NCBI GenBank assembly: GCA_002437105.1 | Contig: DJOB01000002.1 | Location: 8,049-72,048 of the forward strand | Length of the DNA stretch: 64,000 nucleotides | Direction: 5' to 3' | Source of the DNA: Bacillales bacterium UBA6449 | GTDB taxonomy: Bacteria; Bacillota_I; Bacilli_A; RFN20; CAG-288 | Shown: positions 5,986-63,333 of the stretch, piece after piece | Numbering within the stretch: the first letter of the stretch is position 1 | Layout: the number at the start of each line of letters is the position of its first letter | The notes under the pieces: generated by a model | What the model was told of the DNA's origin: nothing | The model's database searches: none | Seen by the model: only the letters and a program-made list of their open reading frames with translations | Made by a program: the position numbers and the translations under genes

Positions 5986-6537
5986 ATGGAAGAGAAGGAT
6001 ATCATCGACGAAGTTAATAAGAAGATGGATGAGAGTGTCCAGAAGCTCAAGGAGGCGCTGGCGACCGTCAGAGCGGGAGCGGTCAATCCTAACGTGCTGG
6101 ATAAGATCAAGATCGAGTACTATGGAGAGATGACCCCCATCAAAGCGGTGGCTTCGGTCAATGCGGTGAGCGGAACGCAGCTGGTCGTCAAGGCCTTCGA
6201 TCCCACCGCGATCAAGGCGATCATCGCCGCGATCGGAACTTCTGATCTGGGCGTGAATCCCGTTCTGGACAAGAACGTGATCCGTATAAATTTCCCTCCT
6301 CTCTCCGGCGATCGCCGCAAGGAGTTCGTCAAGCAGGCGAAGGGATACTGCGAGGATGGCAAGGTCGCCATCAGGAATATCCGCAAGGATCTGATCAATA
6401 AGACCAAGAAGTCCGACGAGTTCAGCGAGGATATGGAGAAGAGGATCGAGACCTCCATCCAGAAGGCTCACGATGAACACATCAAGGCGATCGACAGCCT
6501 CTTCAAGACCAAGGAGAAAGAGCTGCTTTCTATCTAG
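5986..6537 (+). CDS. frr: Ribosome recycling factor
   Basis: MEEKDIIDEVNKKMDESVQKLKEALATVRAGAVNPNVLDKIKIEYYG...IRINFPPLSGDRRKE is a typical Frr sequence. The internal Met at 5986 is chosen over the track start at 5941. Confidence 0.95.
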   Translation: MEEKDIIDEVNKKMDESVQKLKEALATVRAGAVNPNVLDKIKIEYYGEMTPIKAVASVNAVSGTQLVVKAFDPTAIKAIIAAIGTSDLGVNPVLDKNVIRINFPPLSGDRRKEFVKQAKGYCEDGKVAIRNIRKDLINKTKKSDEFSEDMEKRIETSIQKAHDEHIKAIDSLFKTKEKELLSI

Positions 6538-6555
6538 TCGCCACGGTTGTAACCG

Positions 6556-6587
6556 GGGGATGCACATGGGCATCTCCTTTCTTTTTT
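6556..6587 (+). terminator. Hairpin plus T-run between frr and cdsA (terminator or attenuator)
   Basis: GGGGATGC-ACATGG-GCATCTCC followed by TTTCTTTTTT. Confidence 0.6.
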
Positions 6588-6600
6588 AGGAGGATGATGA

Positions 6601-7608
6601 ATGGCCAATAAACTCTCTCGATCCACGGAGCACTCGATGCTGGTGCGGGTGCTCACGAGCCTCGCCTTCGCGCTGCTGACGGTTCCCTGTGCCATTCTCG
6701 GCGGATGGTTCATGGTCGGGCTGTCCCTGGTGCTGGTGGGCTTTGGCTCCTACGAGCTCCTGACGATGCCGCGGCGGAAGTTCCCGGTGGCAGTCTGGAT
6801 CGCCACTTTTGTCTTCGTGTACGCCATCGTCTATAGCCAGTTCTTCTTGGATGCTGATCTGATTAGACAGTTCTTCAGCTCCAACTTGATATATTTAAAT
6901 GGGTTGCACTATTCTGTTCCCCTCTTGCTCCTCTTCGCCTACCTGATCGTGCTGTTCTTAGTCGAGTTCTTCTGCCGTGATTTCTCCCTGTCCGATCTCC
7001 TGTACCTGTTCGTTGCGGTATTTCTCGTCTCATTCGGATTTCAGTCGATCATCTATCTTCGTTTCGTCCCCGATGGCATGGCTCAGATCGCTGGAGGGGC
7101 CCAGACCATCTGGGGTGGCTTCGCCTACAATCTGACCTCGTGCCTGTTCATGTGGTGGGTGCTCTTCGGGGTGTGGCTCAGCGATATCGGTGCGTATTTC
7201 GTCGGGGTCTTCTTCGGTAAGCACCCGATGAATGTGAGGATCTCTCCGCACAAGACCTGGGAGGGATTCGCTGGCGGTGTCCTGTTCTCCTTCGCCTTCG
7301 CCTTCATCTATGTCGCCATCGTGAATTCCTGGCTGCGCGTGCCTCTTATCCCGGGGGTCATCGATGTCTATAAGGATCCCAGCGACTGGGGCTGGGTGGC
7401 TCTGTTCGCTCTGATGTTCGTCTCGCTGGACAATATCGGAGGCTTCCTCTTCTCCGCGCTGAAGCGGAAGTACGACGCCAAGGATTGGGGGTTCATCCTC
7501 CCGGGTCACGGCGGTATCATCGACCGGTTCGATGGTGTCATGGTCACTTCGATCGCAGCCTCGATCGTGGTCACGCTGCTCGGCAATCCGACTAGCTTTT
7601 TGGCTTGA
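6601..7608 (+). CDS. cdsA: Phosphatidate cytidylyltransferase (CDP-diglyceride synthase)
   Basis: SDIGAYFVGVFFGKHPM...ISPHKTWEGFAGG...GHGGIIDRFDG are CdsA signature blocks. The protein is multi-TM. AGGAGG lies 7 nt upstream. Confidence 0.9.
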   Translation: MANKLSRSTEHSMLVRVLTSLAFALLTVPCAILGGWFMVGLSLVLVGFGSYELLTMPRRKFPVAVWIATFVFVYAIVYSQFFLDADLIRQFFSSNLIYLNGLHYSVPLLLLFAYLIVLFLVEFFCRDFSLSDLLYLFVAVFLVSFGFQSIIYLRFVPDGMAQIAGGAQTIWGGFAYNLTSCLFMWWVLFGVWLSDIGAYFVGVFFGKHPMNVRISPHKTWEGFAGGVLFSFAFAFIYVAIVNSWLRVPLIPGVIDVYKDPSDWGWVALFALMFVSLDNIGGFLFSALKRKYDAKDWGFILPGHGGIIDRFDGVMVTSIAASIVVTLLGNPTSFLA

Positions 7609-7665
7609 TCCGCTCTTTTCCGTTAGATTTCGCTTCTATTGAGTCTTTGGCTGTTATTACGATTG

Positions 7666-7699
7666 GAACCGCAGGGATGAAACCTGCGGTTCATTTTTT
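7666..7699 (+). terminator. Rho-independent terminator after cdsA
   Basis: GAACCGCAGG-GATGAAA-CCTGCGGTTC (10 bp stem) followed by ATTTTTTC. Confidence 0.85.
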
Positions 7700-7757
7700 C
7701 TTATCGGTCGGTCCGTTCCTAGACCGTGAGATCGGTCCTGCAGACTCGAGTCTATCT

Positions 7758-7765
7758 TGTATAAT
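7758..7765 (+). promoter_or_regulatory. Extended -10 element (TGTATAAT) upstream of the Dxr-like gene
   Basis: TGnTATAAT match ~65 nt upstream of the start. No good -35 hexamer seen. Confidence 0.45.
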
Positions 7766-7829
7766 CTATATGTTTTGGTACATCCTTAATTTTTAATAGT
7801 ATCGATAGATTAAGGTGCAAAAATAAGGA

Positions 7830-9734
7830 GTGATTATTTTGGATACTGTAATTCTCGGTGTCGATGAGCCTCTGGGACAGAGGTCTCTTCGTGAGGTCCT
7901 CAGCGCAGGACAGGATAGGGTCGTAGGCGTGGGTGTCTCTTCTCCGTCCTCTCTGACGGCTGAGCTTTTCAAGTCGCTGCCCGATCTCAGGATCGTGTCC
8001 CTCAGAGATGGGACGTTCGATCAGGCGCCTACCGGTGTCTCGGTGTACATCGGAAGTGGATCCGAAGCGAGGATGGTCGAATCTCTGAAGCCCCAGAAGG
8101 TTCTTCTCTGCACCTATGGAATCGACTCGTACAAGGTCTATGCTTCCCTGGTCAAGACGCAGAGTACGATTCTTCTAGGCGATGTCGATTCGACTCTCGT
8201 CGGCAATGTCAATCCGGGCGAGCTGGCTGGTATCGAGTATCTGTCGCCGGCTATCAGGCAGGGCTTGGAGCTGGTGAAGAAGGCGGCTGCGACCGATCGG
8301 ATCATCCTGGTCTACCGCGCTGATGAGAATGTCGAAAAGACTCCTGCGGAGAAGCTCTTCGCGCTGACGGGCAAGACTCTCAGTCAGGCGGGTGAGGACA
8401 CGCGGGGAGCGATCGAATCCGCGCTCATGATCCGCGCTTTCTTCGATCTCGCCATCCTCGCGCGCGTGACCGGTAAGGCGATCGACACTTTTGGCGCCAT
8501 GATCGGCGATCCGGAGAAGACTCCCGCTGTCATCTCTCGGGATGGTGCGTTCATCGATGCGGAGGGGAATCCGGTCACCGGTCTGACCGCGCTCTCCTAC
8601 GAGCTGTATCCCATGTTCTACTTCCTGACGAAGATATCCAGCAAGTTCAAGGTCAGGGGCGATATCGCCATCTGCGGCGCTTCCGAAGTGGCGATCAAGG
8701 CTTGTGCTGAGGATAAGATCGACCTCTCCAGCACGGAGACGGTGATCCGGCAGGTCGCTTCGGCTGTCGCCCATAATCTCAAGACTCCTACCGATGAGAT
8801 CCAGGCGCAGATCGTCTTCGACACGGCGGTCAAGGCGGCTAAATCTCTGGTGGATCGGGTGGTCAATGCTCGCGAGCACGGTACTACCCTAGTTCAGGTG
8901 CGGAAGTCCAAGAAGCTCAACGCTGAGAGGGAGGAGAAGGTCGTCGAGACTAAAGAGGAGCACAAGGAGCACAAGAAGGCGACGCGCTGGAAGAACGATC
9001 CGGACAAGAAGGAGCTCTGGGCTGAGCACGTTCGGGTGAGACAGGCGCGCCAGAAGCGAGAGGCGGAGAACGAGAAGCGTTCCAAGGTGCGGATGCAGCA
9101 GGTGGAGAAGGCGAAGGCCGACCGCGGCGATTTCCCAGTCGAGATAGTCGCGGATGAGAAGAAGGATCGCGATCAGCACAATCGCGAACGGACCCGCTAC
9201 GGATCTCACTCCAGCTATCGCGGACATTCATCTTTCGGCGACCATCGTTCCTTCGGTGGCCACAGGAGCTTCCATCGGGATGGTGAGAGCGGCGAGAGAA
9301 GGTCCTTCAGATCCGCGGGGGAGAGGAAGTTCGGCGCCCACAAGTCCTTCGGTGATCATCGCTCTTTCGGCGATCACAAGAGCTTCCACCGGGACGGTGA
9401 GAGCGGTGAGAGAAAGTCCTTCAGACCCGCAGGCGAGAGGAAGTTCGGCGCCCACAAGTCCTTTGGCGATCATCGTTCCTTCGGTGATCATAAGAGCTTC
9501 CACCGGGATGGTGAGAGTGGCGAGAGAAAGTCCTTCAGGCCTGCGGGCGAGAGGAGGTTCGGTGCCCGCAAATCCTTCGGCAATCATCGTTCCTTCGGCG
9601 GACACAAGTCCTTTGGTGGTCATCGTGGTTCCTACGATGGTGGCAAGAGGAGCTTTGGAGGTAGGAGAAGCAGTTATTCTAGAGGGTCTAGCCGGAGTTC
9701 TTTCCGGAAGCCGTCCACTAAGAGCGAAGAGTAG
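7830..9734 (+). CDS. Degenerate Dxr-like (1-deoxy-D-xylulose-5-phosphate reductoisomerase fold) protein with a K/E-rich segment and a basic His/Arg/Ser/Phe/Gly repeat tail
   Basis: It occupies the dxr slot between cdsA and rseP. By-eye alignment to Dxr: ILGVDEPLGQRSL vs ILGsTGSIGtqTL; QSTILLGDVDSTLV vs KTIaLANKEtLV; DRIILVYRADEN vs ERlIiTASGGsF; GASEVAIKACAEDKI vs aANEvAVaaFLagkI. The catalytic and NADPH motifs are not conserved. The start is ambiguous: GTG 7830 overlaps the AAGGAG RBS, while TTG 7839 has 8 nt spacing. Confidence 0.5.
   Translation: MIILDTVILGVDEPLGQRSLREVLSAGQDRVVGVGVSSPSSLTAELFKSLPDLRIVSLRDGTFDQAPTGVSVYIGSGSEARMVESLKPQKVLLCTYGIDSYKVYASLVKTQSTILLGDVDSTLVGNVNPGELAGIEYLSPAIRQGLELVKKAAATDRIILVYRADENVEKTPAEKLFALTGKTLSQAGEDTRGAIESALMIRAFFDLAILARVTGKAIDTFGAMIGDPEKTPAVISRDGAFIDAEGNPVTGLTALSYELYPMFYFLTKISSKFKVRGDIAICGASEVAIKACAEDKIDLSSTETVIRQVASAVAHNLKTPTDEIQAQIVFDTAVKAAKSLVDRVVNAREHGTTLVQVRKSKKLNAEREEKVVETKEEHKEHKKATRWKNDPDKKELWAEHVRVRQARQKREAENEKRSKVRMQQVEKAKADRGDFPVEIVADEKKDRDQHNRERTRYGSHSSYRGHSSFGDHRSFGGHRSFHRDGESGERRSFRSAGERKFGAHKSFGDHRSFGDHKSFHRDGESGERKSFRPAGERKFGAHKSFGDHRSFGDHKSFHRDGESGERKSFRPAGERRFGARKSFGNHRSFGGHKSFGGHRGSYDGGKRSFGGRRSSYSRGSSRSSFRKPSTKSEE
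9228..9569 (+). repeat. Three in-frame tandem copies of a 114-nt (38-codon) unit inside the Dxr-like ORF, with a degenerate partial fourth copy to ~9630
   Basis: The unit encodes (K/S)SFGDHRSFG(D/G)H(K/R)SFHRDGESGER(K/R)SFR(P/S)AGER(K/R)FGA(H/R). Copy boundaries are 9228, 9342 and 9456. Confidence 0.9.
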
Positions 9735-9762
9735 TTTCTACTTTGGATAGGAGGCCTCTCGG

Positions 9763-51543: not shown

Positions 51544-52542
51544 CTATTTATAGGTTTTCTCTAGTTTATTTATGTGTTCCTTGATCCGATCTATCAACTC
51601 GGGGCAGCCGATGACTTTCATGTGGTCATCGGAGTACTGAATGGCCCAGATGGTTGCGCTGTTGATATCCGACTTAGTGTGGCAGATCCAGTGATTATCC
51701 TTCTTCTCGATGAAGGTATTGCTGCTGCCGAAAGAATTGCTGATGCGGATTGCTTTGGACGGATCGTCGTACCAGATTTCCATATCGATCGTATTTCCGA
51801 CAAAGGAATAGGGGTGAGACTTGATATAGTCGTGCAGCTTTATCCCTTTGATCTCCGGGATATCGTCGAGTGAGACCTGCTGTTTATCCGGTAGTATTTT
51901 GAGATTTCTAATCTTCTCTAAGTTGAAGGAATATAGTCTCTTGCCTCGGGAATAGGTGGCGAATAGGTGCTGGTTTCCGTGCTGATTGGCGATGAAGTGA
52001 GGATTGACTTGGAATGATCGTCCCGTGGGGACAAGATTGAGATCGGCGTCGTAATCGTAGTAATCGAATGTGATCATCGCATTCGTATCTATGGCGCTGA
52101 GGACCTGCTCTATCGTATAGAAGAACTCTTGGTTATTGGTTTTCCCGCAAGACAGATCAGTGTAGAAATCCAAGGTGTTTTTGTGATTGACTCGAAAGTA
52201 CTTGCTGGTGAAGGAGAGAAGCTTATTTATCAGTTCGTCGGTCTGTTTGGTAGTGATGTATTGGGCGGAGACGATCATATCGATCAAGAAGAGAATCTCT
52301 GAATCGTCGAAGGTTCGCTCGATAAAGGCGAAGCCTTTTCCGTTGTTGCCTACATCGATTCCATAGTTCATTTCGTTTGAAAGAAGATACAGGGTATTTC
52401 CGATGGTCTTTCGATCCAGCTTGCAGTTATATTCGGTCTCCAAGTACGATTTGATCTGCGGTTGACTCAAGTAGTGATCGGCATCGCTGTATTTGTTTAG
52501 TATCTTCAGTATGTATAGCGGCGAAAGCTTTTTGTTAGACAT
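51544..52542 (-). CDS. wHTH-WYL-domain transcriptional regulator (BrxR/CapW/PafBC-like architecture)
   Basis: N-terminal wHTH (YILKILNKYSDADHYLSQPQIKSYLE), central WYL-like block (MITFDYYDYDADLNLVPTGRSFQVNPHFIANQHGNQHLFATY...FNLEKIRNLKIL) and a C-terminal extension. Confidence 0.65.
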   Translation of the reverse strand: MSNKKLSPLYILKILNKYSDADHYLSQPQIKSYLETEYNCKLDRKTIGNTLYLLSNEMNYGIDVGNNGKGFAFIERTFDDSEILFLIDMIVSAQYITTKQTDELINKLLSFTSKYFRVNHKNTLDFYTDLSCGKTNNQEFFYTIEQVLSAIDTNAMITFDYYDYDADLNLVPTGRSFQVNPHFIANQHGNQHLFATYSRGKRLYSFNLEKIRNLKILPDKQQVSLDDIPEIKGIKLHDYIKSHPYSFVGNTIDMEIWYDDPSKAIRISNSFGSSNTFIEKKDNHWICHTKSDINSATIWAIQYSDDHMKVIGCPELIDRIKEHINKLEKTYK

Positions 52543-53136
52543 AATTTTTTCAATCCTTGAATTCCTGTTTGCACAAATATTTATAGTCTATCTATAGAGT
52601 AAAAAAACGGACACACACTTTTAATCTGCCATAGCTATTCTATGTTTTGGATACTGCTAACATTTCTTTTTGCACATACTATCAATGTATAACGTTATTA
52701 AACCTTTTTATAACCCTTTGCTGAACAGAGAATATTATAGAGCAGCTATCCTTCATTTAAAAAATTAAGTTTGTTTTATACCTTTAAATATAGTCTTCCT
52801 AGATTAATTCATTCTTATGTCTTAATTTAATTGAGGTGGATTTATTAATCTTTCATGTCGATTGAAAGCGTCATTGAATAATCTTTAGATTTATTAAATT
52901 CTACTGTTAGGAAAAGTTGAGAAGCGTGAATTCTAAATGGCTACAGTCAGTATATGCAAACGATGTGAAAAGTATTCTCAGTATGGATTTGAGCGGATAG
53001 ATGATGATAGTAATAACTGATATAGGAATAGGTTATATCGATTTAAAGTTTAATTATCGGTAGTGATATGTATGTTGCGCAGACAAAAAAAGACAAGTCC
53101 GCTGACGATTCATATGTAGGAACTTGTCTATGAGTT

Positions 53137-53907
53137 CTACTTTTCTTGGAGGTATTTCTTATTCTTTTCCTTCAATTGTTCTTTTACGTATGCAGGATCG
53201 AGGAACTGGTAGGTGATGGTATCGCACTCGGGTAGGATCCTGTCGAAGACATCCTTATTCTCGATTGTCCACGCATTGACGAAGTGATTTCGGTAGTAGG
53301 ACTTCACCCGTGGATTATCTAGCAGGGTATTCTCGATATCGATTGCTTCGAAGAAATACCGCAACTTAAAGACCCAGAAATGTCCCTGACATACGAGGAG
53401 CTGTCTTAGAATGCCAAGCTTTTTTAAGGGGAACAGGGCTCGTGGATCGAAGGAGATGATATTGTAGTTTTCCTTGTTCTTTACTCCCTTCATGGCTTGG
53501 AGGAATCGCTTGGTTAAAGGCCGGTAGTTCTTCCTATAGACCTTGAGTTCGATGACCATCGGAAAGTCATCGTGTCCCAGGGCGAGTACCTCTTCAAAGG
53601 AAGGAATCTTCGCTCCGTTCAGCAGGGTGTAGTTCTCCTTAAGCTCCTTCAGGGTTAGATCTTCTACTATTCCGTCCTTGCCGGTGAGTCGCTTGAGGTC
53701 CGAGTCGTGGATGACTGCCAGCTGGTTATCCTTGGTGAGATGGATATCGAATTCGAAGGCGACCTGGTGGGCAATCGCATTCTTGAAGGCCTCGATGGAA
53801 TTCTCAGTTATGCCCTTTTCGTTGTTATACAGCCCGCGGTGTGCGACACCGAGAGAGAATAGAGGATTGCATGATTGAATGTACTTCTCTTTATCGATCT
53901 TTGACAT
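53137..53907 (-). CDS. glpQ: Glycerophosphodiester phosphodiesterase
   Basis: VAHRGLYNNEKGITENSIEAFKNA...FEFDIHLTKDNQLAVIHD carries the GDPD catalytic H-R, E and D-H pattern. Confidence 0.85.
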   Translation of the reverse strand: MSKIDKEKYIQSCNPLFSLGVAHRGLYNNEKGITENSIEAFKNAIAHQVAFEFDIHLTKDNQLAVIHDSDLKRLTGKDGIVEDLTLKELKENYTLLNGAKIPSFEEVLALGHDDFPMVIELKVYRKNYRPLTKRFLQAMKGVKNKENYNIISFDPRALFPLKKLGILRQLLVCQGHFWVFKLRYFFEAIDIENTLLDNPRVKSYYRNHFVNAWTIENKDVFDRILPECDTITYQFLDPAYVKEQLKEKNKKYLQEK

Positions 53908-53939
53908 TTTTAAAATCTCCTTACCAGGATGTTTTACTC

Positions 53940-55328
53940 TTATTTACCTTCGACAATCTTAGAACTTTTTCTGTGGACGTTTTTCACGAACATGAAGACG
54001 ATCAGCGACAGGCAGAGGCAGGCGAGCGCATAGATAGGAAGGAAGGAGAAACCGAAGCCGGGTATTAGTATAAGAAGTCCGACGAGGATCGGTGTGATAG
54101 TTTGGGCAGCCATGCTGGAGGCGTAGTAGTATCCCGTGAATTTGCCTATCTTCTTAGAGGAGCAGAGCTCTACCACCATCGGGAAGGAGTTCACGTGGAC
54201 CAAGCTCATGCCGAGTCCCTTGAAGAACCACACTATATATAGGTAGATGGGGAAGGGGTTGACCGCGCTTCCAGTGACCTGTTTCACGGGGATCGTGTAC
54301 GAGCAGATGACCCAGACCAGAGAAGCGGCCAAGGCCAAGCTGAGTCCCGACACTATGGTGTATTTTTTTCCTATCTTGCCAGCGATAATACCGCCGATGG
54401 CGAAACCTAAAACCGAACCGACACCACCGACGATGGTGTTTATCATTGCACCCTGGGTACCAGAGTGAAGGTGGTAGTTGGAGTAATTGACCATGAAGGT
54501 GGATACGCCGCTATCAGCCATAAACCAGAGGAATTCAGCCCCCAGGATCAGGAGAAGCATGATCCTATTGGCCTTGGTGAGGGGTTTGTCATCGTTGGCT
54601 CGGTCGGCCGATTCGCTCATCTCCTCACCGAGTTTCATCTGCGGCTCCATCTCCTTCTCGATCTTGTTCTCGTTGATGGAGAAGACCAGTACTAGAGCTG
54701 ATATGACCATCAGGGCTGAGGCGATAAGGAAGGGAGCTTCGATGATCCAGATGTTTGAAGTGTGGTCGGCCCAGCTCTTTCCATCCGATGATTTCAGATA
54801 TTTGGAGAGGACGAAGATTATTCCTACGGCAGTCGCGAAGGCTCCGCCGATGTATCCCATGATGTTGATGATTCCGTTGGCTTTGGACCTGAGCGGCTTA
54901 GGCGTGATATCGGGCATCAAGGCGACCGCAGGATTCCTGTACATCATGGCGAAGATGATAACGATGAACATGAATATGAGGGTTCCGGCAAGGCTGTGGA
55001 GGTGGAAGAAGACGGGGATGAAGGGGAAGGCGATAGCGCAGACCAGGGTGCCCACTATGATGTACGGCATTCTCTTTCCAATCTTTGTATGCGTCTTATC
55101 CGAGAGGTGACCGAAGATCGGAAGAAGGATCAGAGCGGCGAGATTATCTAGCGCCATCATGACACCGACGAGATACTGCACTTGGGTAGCATCGTTTGCT
55201 CCGAGCGCTTCCTTGAAGAGCTCAGTGAGGAAGGTGGGGGTCCAAGAATCGTAGACCTGCCAGAGGAGCAGGATACTGAAGAAGGCAAAACCGATGATGA
55301 TCGTTCGCTTGTAATTGAGTTTTAACAT
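53940..55328 (-). CDS. MFS/GPH-type transporter
   Basis: About 12 TMs. GHLSDKTHTKIGKRMPYIIVG resembles the GPH/MFS loop 2-3 motif. It lies between the HAD and GDPD genes. Confidence 0.8.
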   Translation of the reverse strand: MLKLNYKRTIIIGFAFFSILLLWQVYDSWTPTFLTELFKEALGANDATQVQYLVGVMMALDNLAALILLPIFGHLSDKTHTKIGKRMPYIIVGTLVCAIAFPFIPVFFHLHSLAGTLIFMFIVIIFAMMYRNPAVALMPDITPKPLRSKANGIINIMGYIGGAFATAVGIIFVLSKYLKSSDGKSWADHTSNIWIIEAPFLIASALMVISALVLVFSINENKIEKEMEPQMKLGEEMSESADRANDDKPLTKANRIMLLLILGAEFLWFMADSGVSTFMVNYSNYHLHSGTQGAMINTIVGGVGSVLGFAIGGIIAGKIGKKYTIVSGLSLALAASLVWVICSYTIPVKQVTGSAVNPFPIYLYIVWFFKGLGMSLVHVNSFPMVVELCSSKKIGKFTGYYYASSMAAQTITPILVGLLILIPGFGFSFLPIYALACLCLSLIVFMFVKNVHRKSSKIVEGK

Positions 55329-55330
55329 AG

Positions 55331-55969
55331 CTATTCCTCTTTAAACAATTTTTCGATATACGAAGGAAGTTCTTTTAAATTGTTCAATTCAGTCACCTTT
55401 CTGTCTATCTTTCCGAAACCGTAATTAGCGTGGATGAATTTCACTCTGGCTTTTAGTGCGGCATCAAAATCCTTCTGGGTATCTCCAACATAGATGACCT
55501 CATCGACACCAGCTTTTTCCATCATGACCCTGATGTTGGTACCTTTATCTTTTCCGGTATCGCCAGCGCAGAGATGACCTTTGAAAAGATGCTGGAGCTT
55601 ATACGCTTCCAGATAATCTTCGATATAGCCTTTATCCGCATTCGACACTATGTAGAGCGGGTATTCGGTGACTAATCGGTTCAAAACATCTATTTCATCT
55701 GGATACAGCTTTCCAGGATGGCTTTTGAGGTAGACCAGTTGATCCTTGAGGCAGAGCAGGAAGAGTTTTCTAGCCTCTTCCTGCTTCAGACCGGGGAACG
55801 CGATGGGAAGGGTCTCATCTGGGGTTAATCCCATCATTGAAGTGATAGTCTTGAGGCTGAATCTATACTTGAATTCGTGCTTCTCCATCGTATTGTTCCA
55901 GGAATCTTTAATCGGTTCCAACGCATCCCATAAAGTCCCGTCTAGATCGAAGAAAATAGCTCGTTTCAT
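55331..55969 (-). CDS. HAD-superfamily phosphatase
   Basis: AIFFDLDGTLWD (motif I), SNAD (motif II region) and VGDTQKD (motif IV). Confidence 0.8.
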   Translation of the reverse strand: MKRAIFFDLDGTLWDALEPIKDSWNNTMEKHEFKYRFSLKTITSMMGLTPDETLPIAFPGLKQEEARKLFLLCLKDQLVYLKSHPGKLYPDEIDVLNRLVTEYPLYIVSNADKGYIEDYLEAYKLQHLFKGHLCAGDTGKDKGTNIRVMMEKAGVDEVIYVGDTQKDFDAALKARVKFIHANYGFGKIDRKVTELNNLKELPSYIEKLFKEE

Positions 55970-56270
55970 ACTTGATCCTCTTAGAGATTAAAAAGCACTA
56001 AAATTTTAAAACATCTAGTTTCTTGGGAATTTTAAGAAACTGAAAAACTATCTCTCTAAGATATGCATTGTTTTTGATCTATCAGCAAACTTTTATTTTG
56101 AGTTGGCAGTGTATTGACTTTACACAGTATTAAAGTCGATCTGGTAATTCAGTTATATATAGGATTGTGTTAAGAGAATTTTTAAAGATATTGATACCGG
56201 CGTTAATTTAGAGATCACTAAATTAGTTACACTTTAAAAGAAAGAGTTGTTGTAATTTTTGTCAATAATT

Positions 56271-56780
56271 TTAGACGTTGGCTTCTGTATTTTTTATTCT
56301 TGGAACATAGATGAAGGTAATGGTGAGTATATAGAGGGTGAGATAGATTAAAAGAAGTGCACTGGCTATACAGGTCAGGGTTATGCTTTGAGTCATATTG
56401 CTAGAATCAGCCCCTATGTCCATAGCGAAGGCTTTTATGAAATACGCGGCGGTTCCAATACTCAAAAGGCTGGTCAAAGACATGTTGGCAATCATGAGAC
56501 TGCTCAAGGTCTTGCCGGAGGGCTTTTTCCTAAAACCGCAGATCAAGTTGATGACATCGAGTATGATTATTAATGCCAGCAAGATGTCTATTAAGTAACC
56601 GACACTAATAAATTTTTCCATCGCATCGCTTCCGGCTTCAGATCCTCCGATGCTGCTTATCGATCCGACAAAAATACCACCGATGGTAAAGAAGAGGAAG
56701 ATAAGAATTATTATGGCTAGGATGCCAACAATTCCTATGATGTGTCCGATCAGTAGTGGGGTGCGAGCCTTTTTATTCAT
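56271..56780 (-). CDS. Hypothetical polytopic membrane protein
   Basis: MNKKARTPLLIGHIIGIVGILAIIILIF... with 4-5 TMs. AGGAGG lies 8 nt before ATG 56780. The track start at 56909 adds an implausible leader. Confidence 0.6.
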   Translation of the reverse strand: MNKKARTPLLIGHIIGIVGILAIIILIFLFFTIGGIFVGSISSIGGSEAGSDAMEKFISVGYLIDILLALIIILDVINLICGFRKKPSGKTLSSLMIANMSLTSLLSIGTAAYFIKAFAMDIGADSSNMTQSITLTCIASALLLIYLTLYILTITFIYVPRIKNTEANV

Positions 56781-57071
56781 TATAATTTCCTCCTTATAAA
56801 TTAATTTATCATAGATTTTTGCGTATTTGCATTTAGTACAAATATAAAGATGGATAAAGAGATTAATTAAATATTGGCAAAACATATATCTATGAAATAA
56901 ATGTAACAATCTGTATGGGTGAAAATTTAAAGAAGGAAGCTAATCTGTTTTTTATGAGTTGGGAATAAATTTAACTAAAAGATTTATAGTTTGCAAAACT
57001 ATATAAATCATATTAGGAGGAAAAGGATTTCCTCAGTAGACGGGACGGAAGCCTAGATGCAAAGGACTACC

Positions 57072-57093
57072 AAGAAAGAAAGAAAGAAAGAAG
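57072..57093. repeat. (AAAG)n microsatellite at the 5' edge of the transposase remnant
   Basis: AAG AAAG AAAG AAAG AAAG AAGG read directly. Confidence 0.85.
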
Positions 57094-57108
57094 GCTTTCG
57101 TCACCATA

Positions 57109-57393
57109 GTGCTCGAGTCAAACAGGAATTTTGATCTCAAGACCGCCTATGACTGCTATGCGTTTAGGTGGCAGATAGAACTCATATTTTGTTACTACAA
57201 GAACTTGCAGCGCCTGGACCAGACAATGGAGCATGGCAATGCGTTTGCCGCGGGGAGAGTTCGAAATTTCATATCCATGCTCGTTATGTCAAGGTTCCTT
57301 AAGAGACTTTCCGAGACAGGCGTTATGTATGTGGAGTCGTACAGCGATATCATGGACAAACTTAATCTCTCAATGAAGGGAAAGAAAAAATAA
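57109..57393 (+). pseudogene. C-terminal remnant of a DDE transposase (IS4/IS1634-like)
   Basis: YAFRWQIELIFCYYKNL matches the Y-x2-R-W-x-I-E-x2-F-x3-K block at the C-terminus of IS4-type transposases. Only 94 codons remain, with no catalytic N-terminal part and no inverted repeats seen. Confidence 0.6.
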
Positions 57394-57548
57394 GTGGGAG
57401 ACAGCAAAGACGACAAAGCACGTATCCGATATCCTCGATGCCATTCAAATGGAATGCAAGCATGTGGTAGTCAAAAGAAAAAAGGATGCCCTCCAAGGGC
57501 TTCCTTAGCAATGCATAGCTCTATTTATGACAAAACTTTTAATTAACT

Positions 57549-58585
57549 TTATTTATATTTCTTGCCTAATTCTTTTTCGATTTCGTTAATAGAAGGAAGT
57601 TTATCCTTAATATCTTTGGGTATCATGTTTCTAAAATGATATTCAGAGATCTCAATAGTAGTAGTGACAGCGTCAGCAGAATATTTAGTTAGCATATTGT
57701 CTTTGCTCTTGTAGATAAGGAGATCAATAGTTTTATTATCACTATCTTTCTTTAGCATTCCGTTTACAGCTGAAACATAGCTTGAAAGTTGTACCATATC
57801 TTCTGGTATGAATTCTCTAGTCTTTATTTCTATAACCCTAGATCTATGAAGAGAGAAATTATGGAAAATAATATCAATAAATTGTTCTGTTTTACCAACG
57901 AGAAGATGATATTCTCTTCTGGCGAATGAAAAAACCGTTTCGAGTTCGAGAAGGAATTTTTGGAGGTTATCCATTAAGGCGTCTTTCAGTTGCTTTTCGC
58001 TGGAAGTCTCGGAAAGCAATAGGAAGTCGAATTGGTAGGGATCCTTGGTGACTTCCTGGGCTAGGTCGTTTTCGGGCTTGGGCAAGGTCAATGAGAAATT
58101 GGATATCGCTTTGCCCTCCTCTTTGTAGAGGTCGGTATCGAGGAAATTCAAAAGGATCGCCCTCGACTAGCTCTTGGCGATGGTCTTTCTCATGAAGAAG
58201 ACCATCTTTTCGCGATTCTCTTCGCAGGCGTCTATTATGGTTTTCAGATGCCCTAGGGGAGGCTGAAAGCGATTTTTGCCACAGCTTGTGGCAGGTTTTC
58301 CAAATCTTTCTCGAAGCGGTAGAACTACCACATGTAGCGGATGTTCGTCGGACTGAAAGACTGCGCACTGGGAATTTTCTCCTTCAGGTCGTTGCTTATC
58401 TTCTCGTAGGCGTGGGTCCTGAACCTCATCTTTGGGAGAAGCCCATCGAGTTTCTTATCGATCCTGAAGTAGAATCACAGTATCCCGGAATTCACGCTTA
58501 TGGCTGCCTGCAACTGGCTCTTCCTGAAGTCCTTCGGCACCCCGTTGATGAAATCGAGGCATTCTTTTTCTGTTAGCTCGTTTAT
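57549..58585 (-). pseudogene. Decayed YhcG-like (DUF1016) PD-(D/E)XK nuclease gene
   Basis: The C-terminal 200 codons are intact (KDPYQFDFLLL...FLLELETVFSFARREYHL...IDIIFHNFSLHRSRVIEIK). The N-terminal half is recognisable (AISVNSGIL*FYFRID; SFSPTNIRYMW*FYRF) but broken by several in-frame stops and has no start. Confidence 0.7.
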
Positions 58586-58626
58586 ATTAGTTACCTATTA
58601 TCATTGCTTTTAGGAATTATTCCACG

Positions 58627-58986
58627 CTACTTGTTGCTGATCTTCTCAGATACTATCTTATCAACTATGTTCTTCAATCTCTCGTATCCAACGGTCCCTT
58701 CCTTGAATATGCTGTCGGCGAGGCTCCTTATCTCGGATTCCTTGTCGGAGTTGACGCCACTATAGAGCCTGCCTTCCATGTTGGAGCATCTTCCGAAGAG
58801 CCAATCTAGAGAAAAACTGAAATAATCCGCGTATTTGATGAGTATCTTCTTTGGAGGGAAGTTGATGTCCGACTCGTACTTGAACACGGAGTTCTGGGTG
58901 CATCCTAGCATCTTGCCTAACTTTGCCTGAGATATACCTGCATTCTCTCTGAGTTCTTTTAGTTTTTGACCAATCGTCTTTTCCAT
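58627..58986 (-). CDS. XRE/Cro-C1-type HTH transcriptional regulator
   Basis: IGQKLKELRENAGISQAKLGKMLGCTQNSVFKYESD is a classic HTH_3 sequence. Confidence 0.85.
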   Translation of the reverse strand: MEKTIGQKLKELRENAGISQAKLGKMLGCTQNSVFKYESDINFPPKKILIKYADYFSFSLDWLFGRCSNMEGRLYSGVNSDKESEIRSLADSIFKEGTVGYERLKNIVDKIVSEKISNK

Positions 58987-59260
58987 ATATGCGTCCCTTC
59001 TGCCATTAACTAGGTATAGTATATATTCTTAATAGGATATAAAGCAATATCTTTTAAGATATATTTTGATATAACAAGGTAAAAATAGAGGGACTATAGA
59101 ATTAGACGTCAGGAGATACGAGACGTTCAGATTTGGTCTGGATTCCTACTTCATAGGATATGGTGTCCTGCTGCTTATACCTGAGATCATAGAACTTTCG
59201 ATTAACATAATTAGTGATGGTTCGGTATTTGCAAGGATTCCTTTTTGGCTTTTAACCTGC

Positions 59261-59605
59261 ATGGTTGTGGCGATGTTCGTATCCCTCATTATTCGGACAG
59301 CTTTCGTGAATCGTAAAAACGGCGGAAGGAAGTTCAAGGCAACTCCGGTTCTCGCCGTTGCTTTCATAGTGGGGATTGTATATGCGATTGTTGGGTCTAT
59401 TGCTTTTGTCATGTTAGAGATTACTCTTTTACTACTAATTACCTTGATAGTCGGATTTACTGGACTAGTTGTTCTTAGCATTCAGAGAAAAAACTGGGTA
59501 AGTTTTTTTCTAACTAGTATCGCAGTGGTTTGGGGCGTGATCAGTGTCTCTCAATTTAAGGAAACAAAGAATAAGTGTCTAATTACATTGAGTCCTATGA
59601 ATTGA
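59261..59605 (+). CDS. Hypothetical three-TM membrane protein, possibly N-terminally truncated
   Basis: Hydrophobic 114-aa ORF divergent from the XRE gene. The frame stays open ~62 codons upstream (from 59075) with no ATG/GTG/TTG, and no SD precedes ATG 59261. Confidence 0.35.
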   Translation: MVVAMFVSLIIRTAFVNRKNGGRKFKATPVLAVAFIVGIVYAIVGSIAFVMLEITLLLLITLIVGFTGLVVLSIQRKNWVSFFLTSIAVVWGVISVSQFKETKNKCLITLSPMN

Positions 59606-59650
59606 GTGGTTTAAGTAGTAATAATCATTTTTATAATCCCAAAAATCCTT

Positions 59651-59842
59651 CTAATCATCTTTTAAATCATATAGTAAGGACCTAATTTCAGGTGTTTTTA
59701 ATTTTCTCAAAGCTTTTGCCTCGATTTGGCGAACTCTTTCTCTAGTAACTTTTAAATCATTTCCGATTTCCTCTAATGTTCTCTCAGCACGTCCAAATAA
59801 ACCGAATCTTTCGCAAATAACATTAAATTCACGTTCATTTTT
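59651..59842 (-). pseudogene. Orphan 3' fragment of a sigma-70 family gene (region 4 only)
   Basis: My translation gives [61 protein letters not shown], a clear region 4.1/4.2 HTH. There is no start codon, and a stop lies 2 codons upstream in frame. Confidence 0.75.
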
Positions 59843-60224
59843 CTAAATCATATTTTTTTAAGTTCTCAAAAATTTTGTTCATTCCGACTTTTTTCATTTG
59901 TTCCATTGACAAAGAAATTTTATGACCCGCGACAAAAAACTTTTGTGGGCCTATATTCCACATTTGCTCTCCGGCGAATTTCATAGGTTGCCCTAAAATG
60001 ATTTCAATCAAAAGTCTTTCTTTAGCGAACACAGGGCGAATATCCGAACCAATTCTTTCACATGAACCACCACAAGCTTCGCACTTGTCATAAAAAGAAG
60101 GAGCATCGCACTTCTTGCAATAAAAAATATCACTACTTGCAAGAGTTGTTCTTTTGTGGCAAACAGGGCAAATACTAGTTTCGCACGATAAATCATTGCA
60201 ATTAATGCATTTATAGGTAATCAT
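59835..60224 (-). CDS. Cys-rich double zinc-ribbon protein, possibly the N-terminal stub of a larger gene
   Basis: CINCN...CPVCH and CKKCD...CEACGGSC, then [19 protein letters not shown]. It ends abruptly 1 nt out of frame with the sigma fragment. Confidence 0.4.
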
Positions 60225-61067
60225 AGTTTGATTTTATTGGGTCAAAACTAGTTAATTTTCATTTTTTACCCAACGACGAGAATTATATTATGTTAGCTGT
60301 AAATTACACAGCTTACTCTTAGTCATAGAATCTCCCGATGAGGTCTTTTTTATTAACATACACTTAAGAACAAATGATTAGCACTTGAGTAAAGATGTCA
60401 AATAAGCCTGTGCAAGCGGTTTCAAGCTTAGAAAATCATTTGAAAATTGTCTTATCTCTAAACTTGAATGTCAAATGGTGTTTTGAATTTGTTTATCAAT
60501 ATTTATTTTAGCGTCTTTTGCCTAATGTGTCCAAGAGGACATATATTTTGTTCATAAAACCGATGAGTATTTTTAATGCTGTTTTTTACAACCGCGTATG
60601 GAGTTATGCTTCCATCTACATTTAGAATAGTTTTATTAAAATTTCTTTGAAATTCTTTTGCTGTGGTTTCTACCAAGCAAAGGAACTGCTGCAAGCAATA
60701 TAGAATTCTCAATGTTGTTGGTGGGTTACGTTTTAGCTCCCCCTTTTTAATGCAGGTCAAGGCTTCTTTCTCAATCTATATGATAAATATTTAGGAATTA
60801 GTATAAGTTTATCTAGGTTGCGCCTCTTTAGCCAGGTATCTATTGCAATTATTTTATTATTGAGGTTAATGCCATTAATAAATGAATGGTAAATATGGAG
60901 ATTTTTTCGACTCTACTATTAATGTAGATGCTTTCACAATTCATCTTGGAATTGGATTTCTTTTAGATATATTAAAGATATCAAGCATCATCAATACAAT
61001 TCATTTTTCAGATCTATGCTTTTGATTCCAACATTTTATTTGGGTTCAACATTTTAAAAGAGAGTAC

Positions 61068-61095
61068 AAAAAATCGGCACTCAATAAGTACCGAT
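61068..61095 (-). terminator. Terminator after tRNA-Glu
   Basis: Minus strand reads ATCGGTAC-TTATTGA-GTGCCGAT followed by TTTTTTG. Confidence 0.7.
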
Positions 61096-61110
61096 CAATT
61101 AAGTTCTAAT

Positions 61111-61186
61111 TGGTGACCCGTACCAGGTTCGAACTGGTGAATGAAGCCTTGAAAGGGCTTTGAGTTAACCGCTTCTCCAACGGGCC
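61111..61186 (-). tRNA. tRNA-Glu (anticodon UUC), CCA encoded
   Basis: GGCCCGT-TG-GAGAAGCGGTTAACTCA-AAGCC-CTTTCAA-GGCTT-CATTC-ACCAG-TTCGAAC-CTGGT-ACGGGTC-A-CCA. The acceptor stem and 3' end are very close to Bacillus tRNA-Glu as I remember it. Confidence 0.9.
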
Positions 61187-61247
61187 AGTCAAATGCTTTT
61201 GCAAGCTTGATAATTCTAATACAAAAATTCTTTATTTCAACAGAAAA

Positions 61248-61273
61248 CCCCGGGGTTACCGGGGCATTTTTTC
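61248..61273. terminator. GC hairpin between the two tRNA genes (terminator-like; the stronger T-run is on the + strand)
   Basis: CCCCGG-GGTTA-CCGGGG flanked by AAAA and CATTTTTTC. Confidence 0.45.
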
Positions 61274-61275
61274 TA

Positions 61276-61351
61276 TGGCGCTAACTGTAAGACTCGAACT
61301 TACGACCACCCGGTTAACGGCCGGGAGCTCTACCAACTGAGCTAAGTTAGC
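61276..61351 (-). tRNA. tRNA-Asn (anticodon GUU), CCA encoded
   Basis: GCTAACT-TA-GCTC-AGTTGGTA-GAGC-T-CCCGG-CCGTTAA-CCGGG-TGGTC-GTAAG-TTCGAGT-CTTAC-AGTTAGC-G-CCA. All four stems are perfect, and position 33 reads C. Confidence 0.85.
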
Positions 61352-61366
61352 TTGAAAGCGAATGGG

Positions 61367-61395
61367 ATTATAAACATATCTGTTCCTCGTTGCAA
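61367..61395 (-). promoter_or_regulatory. Near-consensus sigma-70 promoter for the tRNA-Asn/tRNA-Glu operon
   Basis: Minus strand reads TTGCAA, a 17-nt spacer, then TATAAT. The -10 ends ~15 nt before the tRNA-Asn 5' end. Confidence 0.8.
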
Positions 61396-61449
61396 GACCA
61401 AGATGAAATATTATCCGCTGGGTGGTTTATACTTCTAGGAGATTAGGAG

Positions 61450-63333
61450 ATGGTTTGTAATGGCTTCAGGTTCCATCGATCCGTACCTGAGGGAGGAGGG
61501 CCTTCTATGTTGAGTGGTATCTTGAACCCCGCGAGCCTAGATAAACCATATGTCATTGTTGGAATCTGTCTGGTGGTGTTCTTTTTTATCCTCGGCGCGG
61601 TCCTCTTTCCTATCTATCTATATTTCAGGCGCAGAAAAGCGCGGCACGAGAATCTAAAGACTGAGATCTACTTTTGCTCCTATGAGGGAGGAAACGAGAA
61701 GATCCATGTGATTCCCCGCCACGAGATCACCTCGAAGGACGACGATTTCATCGGTGGGTTCGATGTCTCGCTCGATCAATTTCTGCGGATCTTCTCCATC
61801 GTGGACAGCGATGCTGATATGACGGTCGAGGATTGGCTCAAGGGTCTTCTGAAGCAGAAGAAGCAGCCGCTGGTCGTCTCAGCTCATGTGGCTCTGGATG
61901 AGTTCGGATCCGTTTTCCCTCCCAGCCTTCAGAGCTACGCTAGCCGAGCCATCCTCTACGGGGGAGAGGATGATGTGGATCCCATGGATGCTACGGCCGG
62001 TTTCCTTATCAGTATGCAGCCTTCTATCTCTAGAGCGGTAGCGCACAAGCGATCGAGATTCTTGTCCTATCGGCAGTATCTGCGGACTTTCAGGTATCTC
62101 ATGAAGCGCGGAAGGCGAGCTCAGTTCATCTATGTATCTCTGAGTCCCGACGCTAAGGCGAAGAAGTTCCTGTCCGGCACTGAGGAGCAGGAGTACCAGA
62201 CGGCGAAGCTGGGTGATTACCTCGCCCGCGGGCTGGTCAAGAACACCTATCTGGTCAAGGTCGATGCGCGATCGCTGATGTTGATAGATCTGCGTCCTCA
62301 GCCGGATCCCAAGTATGATGCGCGCGTCAATAGAGTCATCGAGGATGTCGAGTTCTTCCTCAAGGTCAATTCGGTCGAGGATCGCTACACTCCGACGATC
62401 GGTCAGACCATCTACGCCCCCGGCAAGAGCATCGAGTCTCTCGATATCGCCCCGTTGGCTTACTACGTCAGTGAGGCGCGGAAGGATGCCGAGGACAATC
62501 TGGCGAATACGATTTTCTTGAAACCCGACTCCAACACCAGCACCACGAGCGGTCGGGAGGTGCGTCAGAGTTTTATTAGAGCGATCGACGACGGCACCTA
62601 CCGGCTATACTTCAATCCCTATTTCACTCTTAATAGCGGTGATCCCTACATGTATGTGCTCTCTATCGCTCCGTTCTTCTCTTACGATGCAGGGTATCTG
62701 AACATCGATGGGGAGGCCTTCCTGGAGGAGGCGAAGAGGCTGAATAGGCTGTCTTCGCTTCTCGATAGCCTTGCTGTTCGGATTGCGCAGCGGAATGTCA
62801 GCGGTGGTCGGCTGCGTCTCGTCGTCCCCTGGAAGCTCGGTTTGATCGACGATATGCTCGATTCCGACTTCGTGCAGAAGATCGGGAATTTCGATCTGTA
62901 TCTATCCTTCTCTCAAGCTGAGATCGAGCGCTATGGGGGCCGGAGGCTCGAGGATCAGATATCCCGGGTCAATTCCGAGGGGATCAAGACCATTCTGTCC
63001 CTCAACAATCGACCTCCGGCGGTCGACGATTCGACGATGAAGCTGTTCTCGATGTTCGAGGTAAGGTATCGCTACAGCGACTCACCGGTCTCGGATATGC
63101 GCGGACGCGCCAATACCCTCTCGGCACTCAGCTTTCTCAAGCCTTACAATAAACCGGTCGCGCTGGGCGGGTTGACCCGGGGAGACGAGACCTACTTCGC
63201 TCTCATCCACGGTATCTGCTGCGTATCCTCGAATGCGCTCTGCCCTCCATCCAGCATCTTCGAGACGCTGAACTCGGAGGGACGGGACATCATCAGCAGG
63301 ATAAATTCAGCCAGGTCGATACGTAAGCAGTAG
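61450..63333 (+). CDS. Membrane-anchored protein with degenerate GGDEF-like and EAL-like domains
   Basis: One TM (YVIVGICLVVFFFILGAVLFPIYLYF). GGDEF-like layout with LVKVDARSLMLIDL in place of vaRlGGDEFavll. EAL-like layout with YRLYFNPYF...VLSIAPFF, DLYLSFSQAEI, IKTILSLNNRPP and PVALGGLTRGDETYFALIHGICCVSSNALCPP. An alternative start at ATG 61507 has GGAGGAGGG 6 nt upstream. Confidence 0.45.
   Translation: MVCNGFRFHRSVPEGGGPSMLSGILNPASLDKPYVIVGICLVVFFFILGAVLFPIYLYFRRRKARHENLKTEIYFCSYEGGNEKIHVIPRHEITSKDDDFIGGFDVSLDQFLRIFSIVDSDADMTVEDWLKGLLKQKKQPLVVSAHVALDEFGSVFPPSLQSYASRAILYGGEDDVDPMDATAGFLISMQPSISRAVAHKRSRFLSYRQYLRTFRYLMKRGRRAQFIYVSLSPDAKAKKFLSGTEEQEYQTAKLGDYLARGLVKNTYLVKVDARSLMLIDLRPQPDPKYDARVNRVIEDVEFFLKVNSVEDRYTPTIGQTIYAPGKSIESLDIAPLAYYVSEARKDAEDNLANTIFLKPDSNTSTTSGREVRQSFIRAIDDGTYRLYFNPYFTLNSGDPYMYVLSIAPFFSYDAGYLNIDGEAFLEEAKRLNRLSSLLDSLAVRIAQRNVSGGRLRLVVPWKLGLIDDMLDSDFVQKIGNFDLYLSFSQAEIERYGGRRLEDQISRVNSEGIKTILSLNNRPPAVDDSTMKLFSMFEVRYRYSDSPVSDMRGRANTLSALSFLKPYNKPVALGGLTRGDETYFALIHGICCVSSNALCPPSSIFETLNSEGRDIISRINSARSIRKQ

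Follow-up and report, generated by a model that had tools for sequence, protein, structure and literature searches.

We describe here a repeat array in a 64,000-nucleotide (nt) stretch of DNA from Bacillales bacterium UBA6449, an uncultured member of the Bacillota of gut type (contig DJOB01000002.1); we call this stretch the window. The array consists of 114-nt tandem repeats and lies inside a gene on the forward strand, close to the left end of the window. It is a translated, old and selectively maintained array that encodes the disordered tail of a pseudoenzyme, one derived from Dxr (IspC), an enzyme of the methylerythritol phosphate (MEP) pathway. What is new is the pairing: a disordered repeat tail of the type found on RNA enzymes sits on a pseudoenzyme, an unexpected carrier. 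A preliminary description of this DNA, made by a model from the letters alone, had drawn attention to the repeats. The carrier, a dead Dxr that the description did not mention, is the more surprising part.

Three old copies of one peptide

The preliminary description had reported three units of 38 codons, starting at 9228, 9342 and 9456, and a degenerate fourth. Tandem Repeats Finder (TRF) and a codon-by-codon comparison both reproduce this arrangement. TRF places a single array at 9234-9608 (period 114, 3.3 copies, 85% matches, score 554), and the repeat unit of 114 nt, or 38 codons, is in frame with the gene, which encodes 631 or 634 amino acids (aa) depending on the start codon. Unit 1 occupies 9228-9341 of the forward strand (SSFGDHRSFGGHRSFHRDGESGERRSFRSAGERKFGAH), unit 2 9342-9455 (KSFGDHRSFGDHKSFHRDGESGERKSFRPAGERKFGAH) and unit 3 9456-9569 (KSFGDHRSFGDHKSFHRDGESGERKSFRPAGERRFGAR). 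Unit 4, at 9570-9683 on the same strand, is recognisable over its first 18 or so codons (KSFGNHRSFGGHKSFGGH); its remainder retains a hexapeptide grammar and nothing else. The 38-residue unit is a composite, KSFGDH-RSFGDH-KSFHRDGESGER-KSFRPAGER-KFGAH, made of the same pieces as the look-alike tails to which we return later.

The case for selection comes from comparing the units with one another. Units 2 and 3 differ at 15 nucleotides, and our recount agrees exactly with the earlier one: 13 synonymous codons and two replacements, K/R at codon 34 and H/R at codon 38, both of them conservative. Unit 1 is more diverged, standing apart from unit 2 by 11 synonymous and five non-synonymous codons and from unit 3 by nine and seven. 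The ratio of non-synonymous to synonymous divergence (dN/dS) between units, a measure that the preliminary description had proposed, is 0.023 for units 2 and 3, 0.075 for units 1 and 2, and 0.123 for units 1 and 3 by the Nei-Gojobori method. The corresponding proportions of synonymous sites that differ (pS) are 0.48-0.55, with Fisher p-values from 5e-9 to 4e-5. Between units 2 and 3, the differences are distributed 0/2/13 over the first, second and third codon positions and all 15 are transitions. Even a model that allows transitions only, one third of them synonymous, gives p = 4e-5 for 13 synonymous changes out of 15. Across the units, positions holding Phe, Gly, His, Asp and Glu are all invariant, and the swaps that are tolerated are mostly K/R. 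The peptide is under purifying selection.

Two other reading frames are open across the array, one on the minus strand (9228-9623) and one in the +1 frame (9154-9750). Reasoning from the coordinates, the changes seen between units would be non-synonymous in both, and the constraint lies in the 634-aa frame only.

The array is old, as codon identity at the residues conserved between units shows: its value is 0.64-0.71, whereas random draws from local codon usage would give 0.44-0.48. The units have covered roughly two thirds of the distance to synonymous saturation and are not fully randomised, which bears out the earlier reading of an old array with a selectively maintained peptide. A young array of this type of peptide gives another picture: in the tail of an RluB-type protein (P0040), the DNA units are near-identical, pS is 0.18 and the ratio of non-synonymous to synonymous proportions (pN/pS) is 0.34. 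Nor does the window array have the marks of a slippage-type minisatellite or contingency repeat, since its units differ at 15-20 sites (13-18% of bases) and its copy number is the same in all assemblies. Selection for dissimilar DNA, which would protect a needed repeat from recombination, may be at work as well; it would add to purifying selection on the peptide and not replace it.

Copy number and alleles among strains

On four independent metagenome contigs (L002-L005) the gene has exactly this length and differs at no more than six of 1896 bases, and five further members of the cluster have the same gene length and copy number. Copy number, which the preliminary description had thought worth comparing in related genomes, is thus constant among strains: it is fixed in at least nine independent assemblies. 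The array is not an assembly artefact.

Two places in the array are polymorphic. At the end of unit 1, within 9336-9341, there is a cluster of changes at 9337-9340 for which the window has GCC CAC (A H), matching the homologous place of unit 2, and the other allele has GGA CGC (G R). The two alleles are not an assembly error because each occurs in several independent assemblies. Three linked changes within 4 nt suggest a short conversion tract between units. The second site, 9556, is AGG or AAG (R/K) in codon 34 of unit 3. We found no relative of between 43% and 99% identity to the window protein in the databases searched.

A basic, disordered tail

The array makes up most of a basic tail that spans 9204-9731 on the forward strand, or residues 459-634 (residues are numbered throughout from the GTG at 7830). 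AlphaFold predicts it to be disordered: the predicted local distance difference test (pLDDT) score is below 50 throughout, and no amphipathic helix is predicted in it. The tail is 19% Ser, 18% Gly, 16% Arg, 11% Phe, 9% His and 7% Lys, and acidic residues account for another 11%. Its net charge is +22 and its isoelectric point 11.3, with charges well mixed, making it a polyampholyte. An aromatic residue comes about every six positions, in a spacing of 6,6,6,6,12,8 that is repeated. His occurs 16 times in 179 residues, always isolated and never in HxH or HH clusters, and there is no Cys.

At the level of nucleic acid, a search of the window against Rfam gave a single tRNA and no RNA element within the array. 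The His-Xaa-Ser repeat protein family HxsA (NF038313) scores 15.7 bits against the window protein, short of the cut-off of 55 (E 0.021). The protein does not belong to HxsA: it falls below the NCBIfam cut-off, and its gene has cdsA and rseP as neighbours in place of the radical-SAM partners HxsB and HxsC. Matches of the whole protein to HxsA4 and L10 were rejected, being sub-threshold and of low complexity.

Look-alike tails on RNA enzymes

A search with the tail by itself (residues 456-634) returned 36 proteins besides the window protein's own database entry (P0001), at E-values from 2e-18 to 9e-3. Thirty-three are RluB-type pseudouridine synthases (PF00849+PF01479), two are 2-thiouracil desulfurases (PF04463) and one is a DEAD-box helicase. 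Their sources are unrelated bacteria, among them Bradyrhizobium, Bacteroidales and a DsbD-bearing metagenome organism, and in each case the matching part is an N- or C-terminal tail. The preliminary description had likened the tail to disordered RNA-binding or metal-binding (His) tails and not to any enzyme domain; low pLDDT scores and a search that returns RNA-enzyme tails almost exclusively agree with the first of these likenesses. The window tail shows the disorder, the hexapeptide grammar and the regular aromatics of tails of this type, and its similarity to them is significant, on scores that low complexity inflates.

The shared grammar is [KR][SP][FY]G[DE][RKH], and motifs in the look-alikes include FHKDGESGEER and SFGDRPAGERKPFGERK. 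RluB-type tails (P0040, P0041, P0048 from Bradyrhizobium sp. WD16 and P0055 from a Bacteroidales metagenome-assembled genome) are, like the window tail, terminal, disordered and made of long runs of this grammar, with 34-53% identity over 47-99% of the window tail. P0040 (L030, 3001-4548) has RSFGDRKGFGER 14 times in nearly identical 36-nt units, and P0041 has the motif KSFGDHKPAFGEHKSFGERK. The differences are equally clear. The window carrier is a dead Dxr; His stands where most of the inspected tails have Arg, Lys or Glu; the window unit is a composite of 38 aa and not a repeat of 6 or 12; and the window copies are old, whereas those of P0040 are nearly identical in DNA.

The two proteins of the 2-thiouracil-desulfurase family, P0045 (L032, 2419-3606) and P0042, have a 250-residue tail with FH[KR]DGE(S/N)GEER and YGERKSFGDRK, nearly identical to pieces of the window unit; in P0042 the tail reads FHKDGESGEER...YGERKSFGDRK.

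DEAD-box helicases offer a second parallel. RhlE1 and RhlE2 of Pseudomonas aeruginosa, like P0062, carry basic, disordered, clade-specific C-terminal extensions comparable with the window tail, and in P0062 the sequence ERKSFGDRPAGERKPFGERK closely resembles KSFRPAGERKFG in the window. In RhlE helicases, most of the affinity for RNA was shown to come from these basic disordered extensions, which also drive the formation of condensates (PMC11260450). The likeness has its bounds: the RhlE extensions that have been studied are poly-Lys or contain Gln and have no sequence likeness to the window tail, which only the uncharacterised P0062 resembles, and the window protein is without a helicase core. 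In E. coli RluB, the C-terminal 40 residues are disordered and poorly conserved (PMC3919597).

Eukaryotic low-complexity domains of the FUS, hnRNPA and LAF-1 type (RGG, FG and [G/S]Y[G/S]) also have evenly placed aromatics in a disordered chain rich in Gly, Ser and Arg, as here. The window tail differs in being bacterial, much shorter, strongly mixed with acidic residues and His, and attached to a folded pseudoenzyme, and we imply no homology. Eukaryotic domains of this kind follow a sticker-and-spacer logic.

From its distribution in sequence databases, the grammar seems to travel between unrelated nucleic-acid enzymes or to arise on them repeatedly. Within the window itself, tblastn found no match to RluB, DEAD-box or TudS cores. 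A literature search for the peptide motifs of the tail and for extensions of Dxr turned up nothing relevant.

A dead Dxr carries the tail

The first 350 or so residues of the protein form a degenerate Dxr domain (7839-8888, forward strand; residues ~4-353), recognised by phmmer, Foldseek, AlphaFold and alignment with intact Dxr. By phmmer, the N-terminus matches Thermotoga Dxr (Protein Data Bank (PDB) code: 3a06) at E=4e-4. AlphaFold predicts residues 1-350 with pLDDT of 85-97, and the best 50 PDB matches that Foldseek gives for the model are all DXR (E 7e-19, TMt 0.68-0.71), with the three-domain fold of the enzyme. Sequence profiles see much less: no Pfam family matches the window protein at E<=1, the Dxr families PF02670, PF08436 and PF13288 do not pass their gathering scores, and NCBIfam gives nothing above threshold for the whole protein.

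Fold and gene position (between cdsA and rseP, in the dxr slot) are where the likeness to Dxr ends. In intact Dxr, the NADPH loop reads GATGSIG or GASGSIG (G-[AS]-[ST]-G-S-I-G); in the window protein, the place is taken by GVDEPLG, which the nearest orthologue, P0002, also has and which P0003 and P0004 have in slightly altered form. In the alignment with intact Dxr, LGDVD stands in place of LANKE and LSPA in place of DSEH, and a deletion has removed the HPxWxMG substrate loop. The metal ligands of Dxr, which we take to be D150, E152 and E231 in E. coli numbering, fare no better. Only the last acidic ligand is retained, as Asp, and the substrate residues N-K align with R-A. Having lost the NADPH loop and all but one of the three metal ligands, the domain is by its sequence a pseudoenzyme whose catalytic machinery is gone. 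The window protein also has a 280-residue extension that ordinary Dxr proteins (P0013, P0074) lack.

The extension begins with a charged helical module at 8889-9203 of the forward strand (residues 354-458), defined by AlphaFold2 and the family alignment. Helices 354-388 and 394-431 are predicted to form a hairpin, followed by a helix at 441-458. At the turn of the hairpin stands the motif RWKNDP (8985-9002, forward strand; R386-P391). This module is common to all family members and is better conserved than any other part of them, with K382, R386, W387, N389, P391, K393, L396 and H400 invariant. It has no match in Pfam, none in the PDB by profile search and no fold match by Foldseek. The RWKNDP hairpin is itself a previously undescribed module.

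A small family that keeps the grammar

An exhaustive HMMER search of 1.84 billion representative sequences found only 13 proteins. Scanning genome contigs for RW[KR]NDP gave three loci; narrower patterns, which were too specific, gave none. The RW[KR]NDP scans added loci from 'uncultured Bacilli', 'uncultured Bacillales' and Clostridium sp. CAG:568, together with many human-gut contigs and one from sage-grouse caecum. Dxr, helical module and tail together define a small uncultured family.

Its members are at different stages of decay. P0010, P0012 and L008 (Clostridium sp. CAG:568) retain every Dxr motif, match PF08436 and carry the same extension; the remaining members are decayed to varying degrees. 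PF02670 and PF13288 are matched by seven of 12 members and PF08436 by two of 12, the window protein not among them. Because members with an intact Dxr carry the extension, it was gained by an active enzyme, and catalysis was lost later.

The tails themselves vary. Those of P0006, P0010, P0011 and CAG:568 have motifs of the types S-[FY]-G-x-H and SFH[RK]D(G)ER, while P0002, P0003 and P0004 have basic tails rich in R/K/S/D/Y/P or in H, in which neither the 38-aa unit nor a DNA repeat occurs. TRF found no long DNA repeat in the orthologues L001 and L006-L008, and the 114-nt array is therefore specific to the window lineage. The earlier claim that the peptide is maintained holds within that lineage. 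Across the family it does not, since P0002 lacks the unit, three distant members lack a tail and the others share only the grammar. Judged from these sequences, the family keeps the grammar and a basic, disordered character, and the window lineage keeps one 38-aa realisation of the grammar very tightly.

Copy number is less stable elsewhere. P0006 and P0033, which belong to the same 90% cluster, differ by a 26-aa indel inside a tail of SSYGH repeats; short-period tails such as theirs change copy number, unlike the window array. In CAG:568, by comparison, the gene is 661 aa long in 19 strains, with a 1-aa deletion in one more. Population pN/pS there rises from 0.067 in the enzyme domain through 0.15 in the helical module to 0.21 in the tail, which is thus under purifying selection as well as almost invariant in length.

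What the tail may do

By analogy with its look-alikes, we think the window tail is, on balance, a multivalent disordered segment that binds RNA or another polyanion and is under purifying selection. A polyanion, most probably RNA, is the ligand we favour because the closest look-alikes sit almost only on enzymes that act on RNA. The arrangement can be pictured as follows. Residues 459-634 belong to a cytoplasmic protein descended from Dxr and follow the grammar of a basic residue, Ser, an aromatic, Gly, an acidic or small residue and then His or a basic one. In the window lineage a block of 38 residues was triplicated long ago, and its copies have since stayed near-constant as protein as the silent sites drifted. 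Aromatic 'stickers' regularly spaced along a cationic polyampholyte could touch a polyanion weakly at many points; RNA is the likeliest one, for example ribosomal RNA or intermediates of ribosome assembly. The Dxr fold, which is normally a dimer, and the RWKNDP hairpin might present two tails per particle. The tail would then concentrate or tether the protein on RNA, in the manner of the basic disordered extensions on DEAD-box helicases, and the extension may in this way have given Dxr a second role that outlived its enzyme activity in the window lineage. More tentatively, proteins built of Dxr, the RWKNDP hairpin and a tail could be undescribed RNA- or ribosome-associated factors of genome-reduced uncultured gut Bacilli, in which moonlighting by the extension began while the enzyme was active, as in CAG:568; several lineages, the window's among them, would later have lost catalysis and kept the protein purely as a scaffold for the second function, and the exact sequence of the tail, beyond its composition, would matter.

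Several observations weigh against an RNA-binding tail. RNA binding is assigned to the window tail by association with tails of RNA enzymes, and the look-alike tails are themselves mostly uncharacterised. The carrier derives from Dxr and is not an RNA or nucleobase enzyme. HMMER E-values for low-complexity repeats are inflated and the likeness in grammar may be convergent. At 9%, the His content exceeds that of most RluB-type tails inspected and could point to sensing of metal or pH. The nearest orthologue, P0002 (43% identity), lacks the 38-aa unit, and the distant members P0005, P0007 and P0009 end just past the helical module with no tail at all, so that some lineages can dispense with it.

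The three members with no tail also speak for a reading in which the tail has no specific ligand and serves as an entropic spacer or a solubility tag, or is constrained in composition only, dissimilar DNA perhaps being favoured against recombinational loss. We consider this unlikely. The family does keep composition and grammar only, with length and sequence free to vary, as the indel between P0006 and P0033 illustrates, and the CAG:568 tail is less constrained than its enzyme domain. Yet units 2 and 3 differ at just two of 38 residues at a pS of 0.55, where selection on composition alone would have allowed many replacements; the register of the aromatics is exact; and the grammar turns up again on RNA enzymes that are unrelated to one another and come from different phyla.

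Slightly less probable, in our view, is a His-rich tail that binds metal (Zn, Ni, Co or Mn, through D-H and H-[RK]-S pairs) or senses pH near neutrality. Dxr needs a divalent metal, and such a tail might have originated as a metal reservoir for the enzyme, in the manner of the His-rich tails of SlyD, HypB and UreE. The 16 His residues stand where most inspected RluB-type tails have R, K or E, other tails in the family (P0011/L007 and P0010) are even richer in His, and there is the weak, sub-threshold match to NF038313. Against this, the tail has outlasted the loss of the NADPH loop and of two of the three metal ligands, the tail of the closest orthologue is only 3% His, the His residues of the window tail are unclustered and unaccompanied by Cys, and the window tail has its best sequence matches among RNA-enzyme tails, not among metallochaperones.

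Slightly more doubtful again is a membrane tether, in which clusters of basic and aromatic residues (KSF/RSF, compare the MARCKS effector domain) would bind anionic phospholipids near CdsA, UppS and RseP. The regular basic-Ser-Phe triads and the charge of +22 would suit this role, as would a gene lodged between those of the membrane enzymes CdsA and RseP. That position, though, is the ancestral dxr slot of Bacillota and older than the extension. The tail, moreover, is a well-mixed polyampholyte with 11% acidic residues and not a polybasic patch, it lacks a predicted amphipathic helix, and its look-alikes sit on soluble RNA enzymes. As for the array being an assembly collapse or expansion of recent slippage, or a repeat that goes untranslated in this frame, assembly from short reads can go wrong over repeats of 114 nt and two other frames are open, but we give this almost no credence: independent assemblies from different samples agree in length and nearly in sequence, the 15-20 differences between units let short reads resolve the copies, only one frame has the differences at its third positions, and that frame is continuous with a conserved upstream protein of 455 residues.

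The array has a value beyond this one protein. The usual view of disordered tails is that selection constrains their composition and not their sequence; here, three copies within one gene have randomised most of their silent sites and kept 36 of 38 residues, a clean natural measure of sequence-level constraint on a disordered region. The carriers, in turn, document the passage from enzyme to pseudoenzyme, from an intact Dxr with the extension (CAG:568) through partly decayed forms to the fully decayed window protein, and the added module is apparently what is kept as Dxr decays. That RluB-type, TudS-type and DEAD-box proteins from different phyla share the grammar suggests a widespread bacterial class of RNA-associated disordered repeats.

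The gene and its surroundings

The whole gene runs on the forward strand from either a TTG at 7839 (631 aa) or a GTG at 7830 (634 aa) to 9734. A Shine-Dalgarno sequence, AAGGAG, lies at 7825-7830 of the forward strand, 8 nt before the TTG. TTG is the likelier start because AAGGAG overlaps the GTG. Public gene calls also begin at TTG (P0001 starts MDTVIL).

Upstream are pyrH, frr and cdsA, downstream rseP and polC. The spacer between cdsA and the Dxr-like gene is 230 nt long (7609-7838) and holds, besides AAGGAG, two further candidate signals, both on the forward strand. One, at 7666-7701, resembles an intrinsic terminator after cdsA: a hairpin (7666-7692) with a stem of 10 pairs, seven of them GC, formed by GAACCGCAGG...CCTGCGGTTC and followed by the T-run ATTTTTTCTT. 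The other, TGTATAAT at 7757-7764, looks from its letters like an extended -10 element and may serve as one; a consensus promoter scan demanding both hexamers did not report it. Taken together, these features suggest that the repeat-bearing gene is probably transcribed from a promoter of its own and translated from TTG 7839.

The gap between frr and cdsA is only 63 nt (6537-6601), and uppS is absent from the window. It lies between frr and cdsA in the operons of CAG:568 and L007, and is absent from L006 as well. Far downstream, the stretch 52000-62000 has a G+C content of 0.36-0.49, down from about 0.55, and includes a tRNA gene on the minus strand (61279-61351); this part of the window may be a horizontally acquired island.

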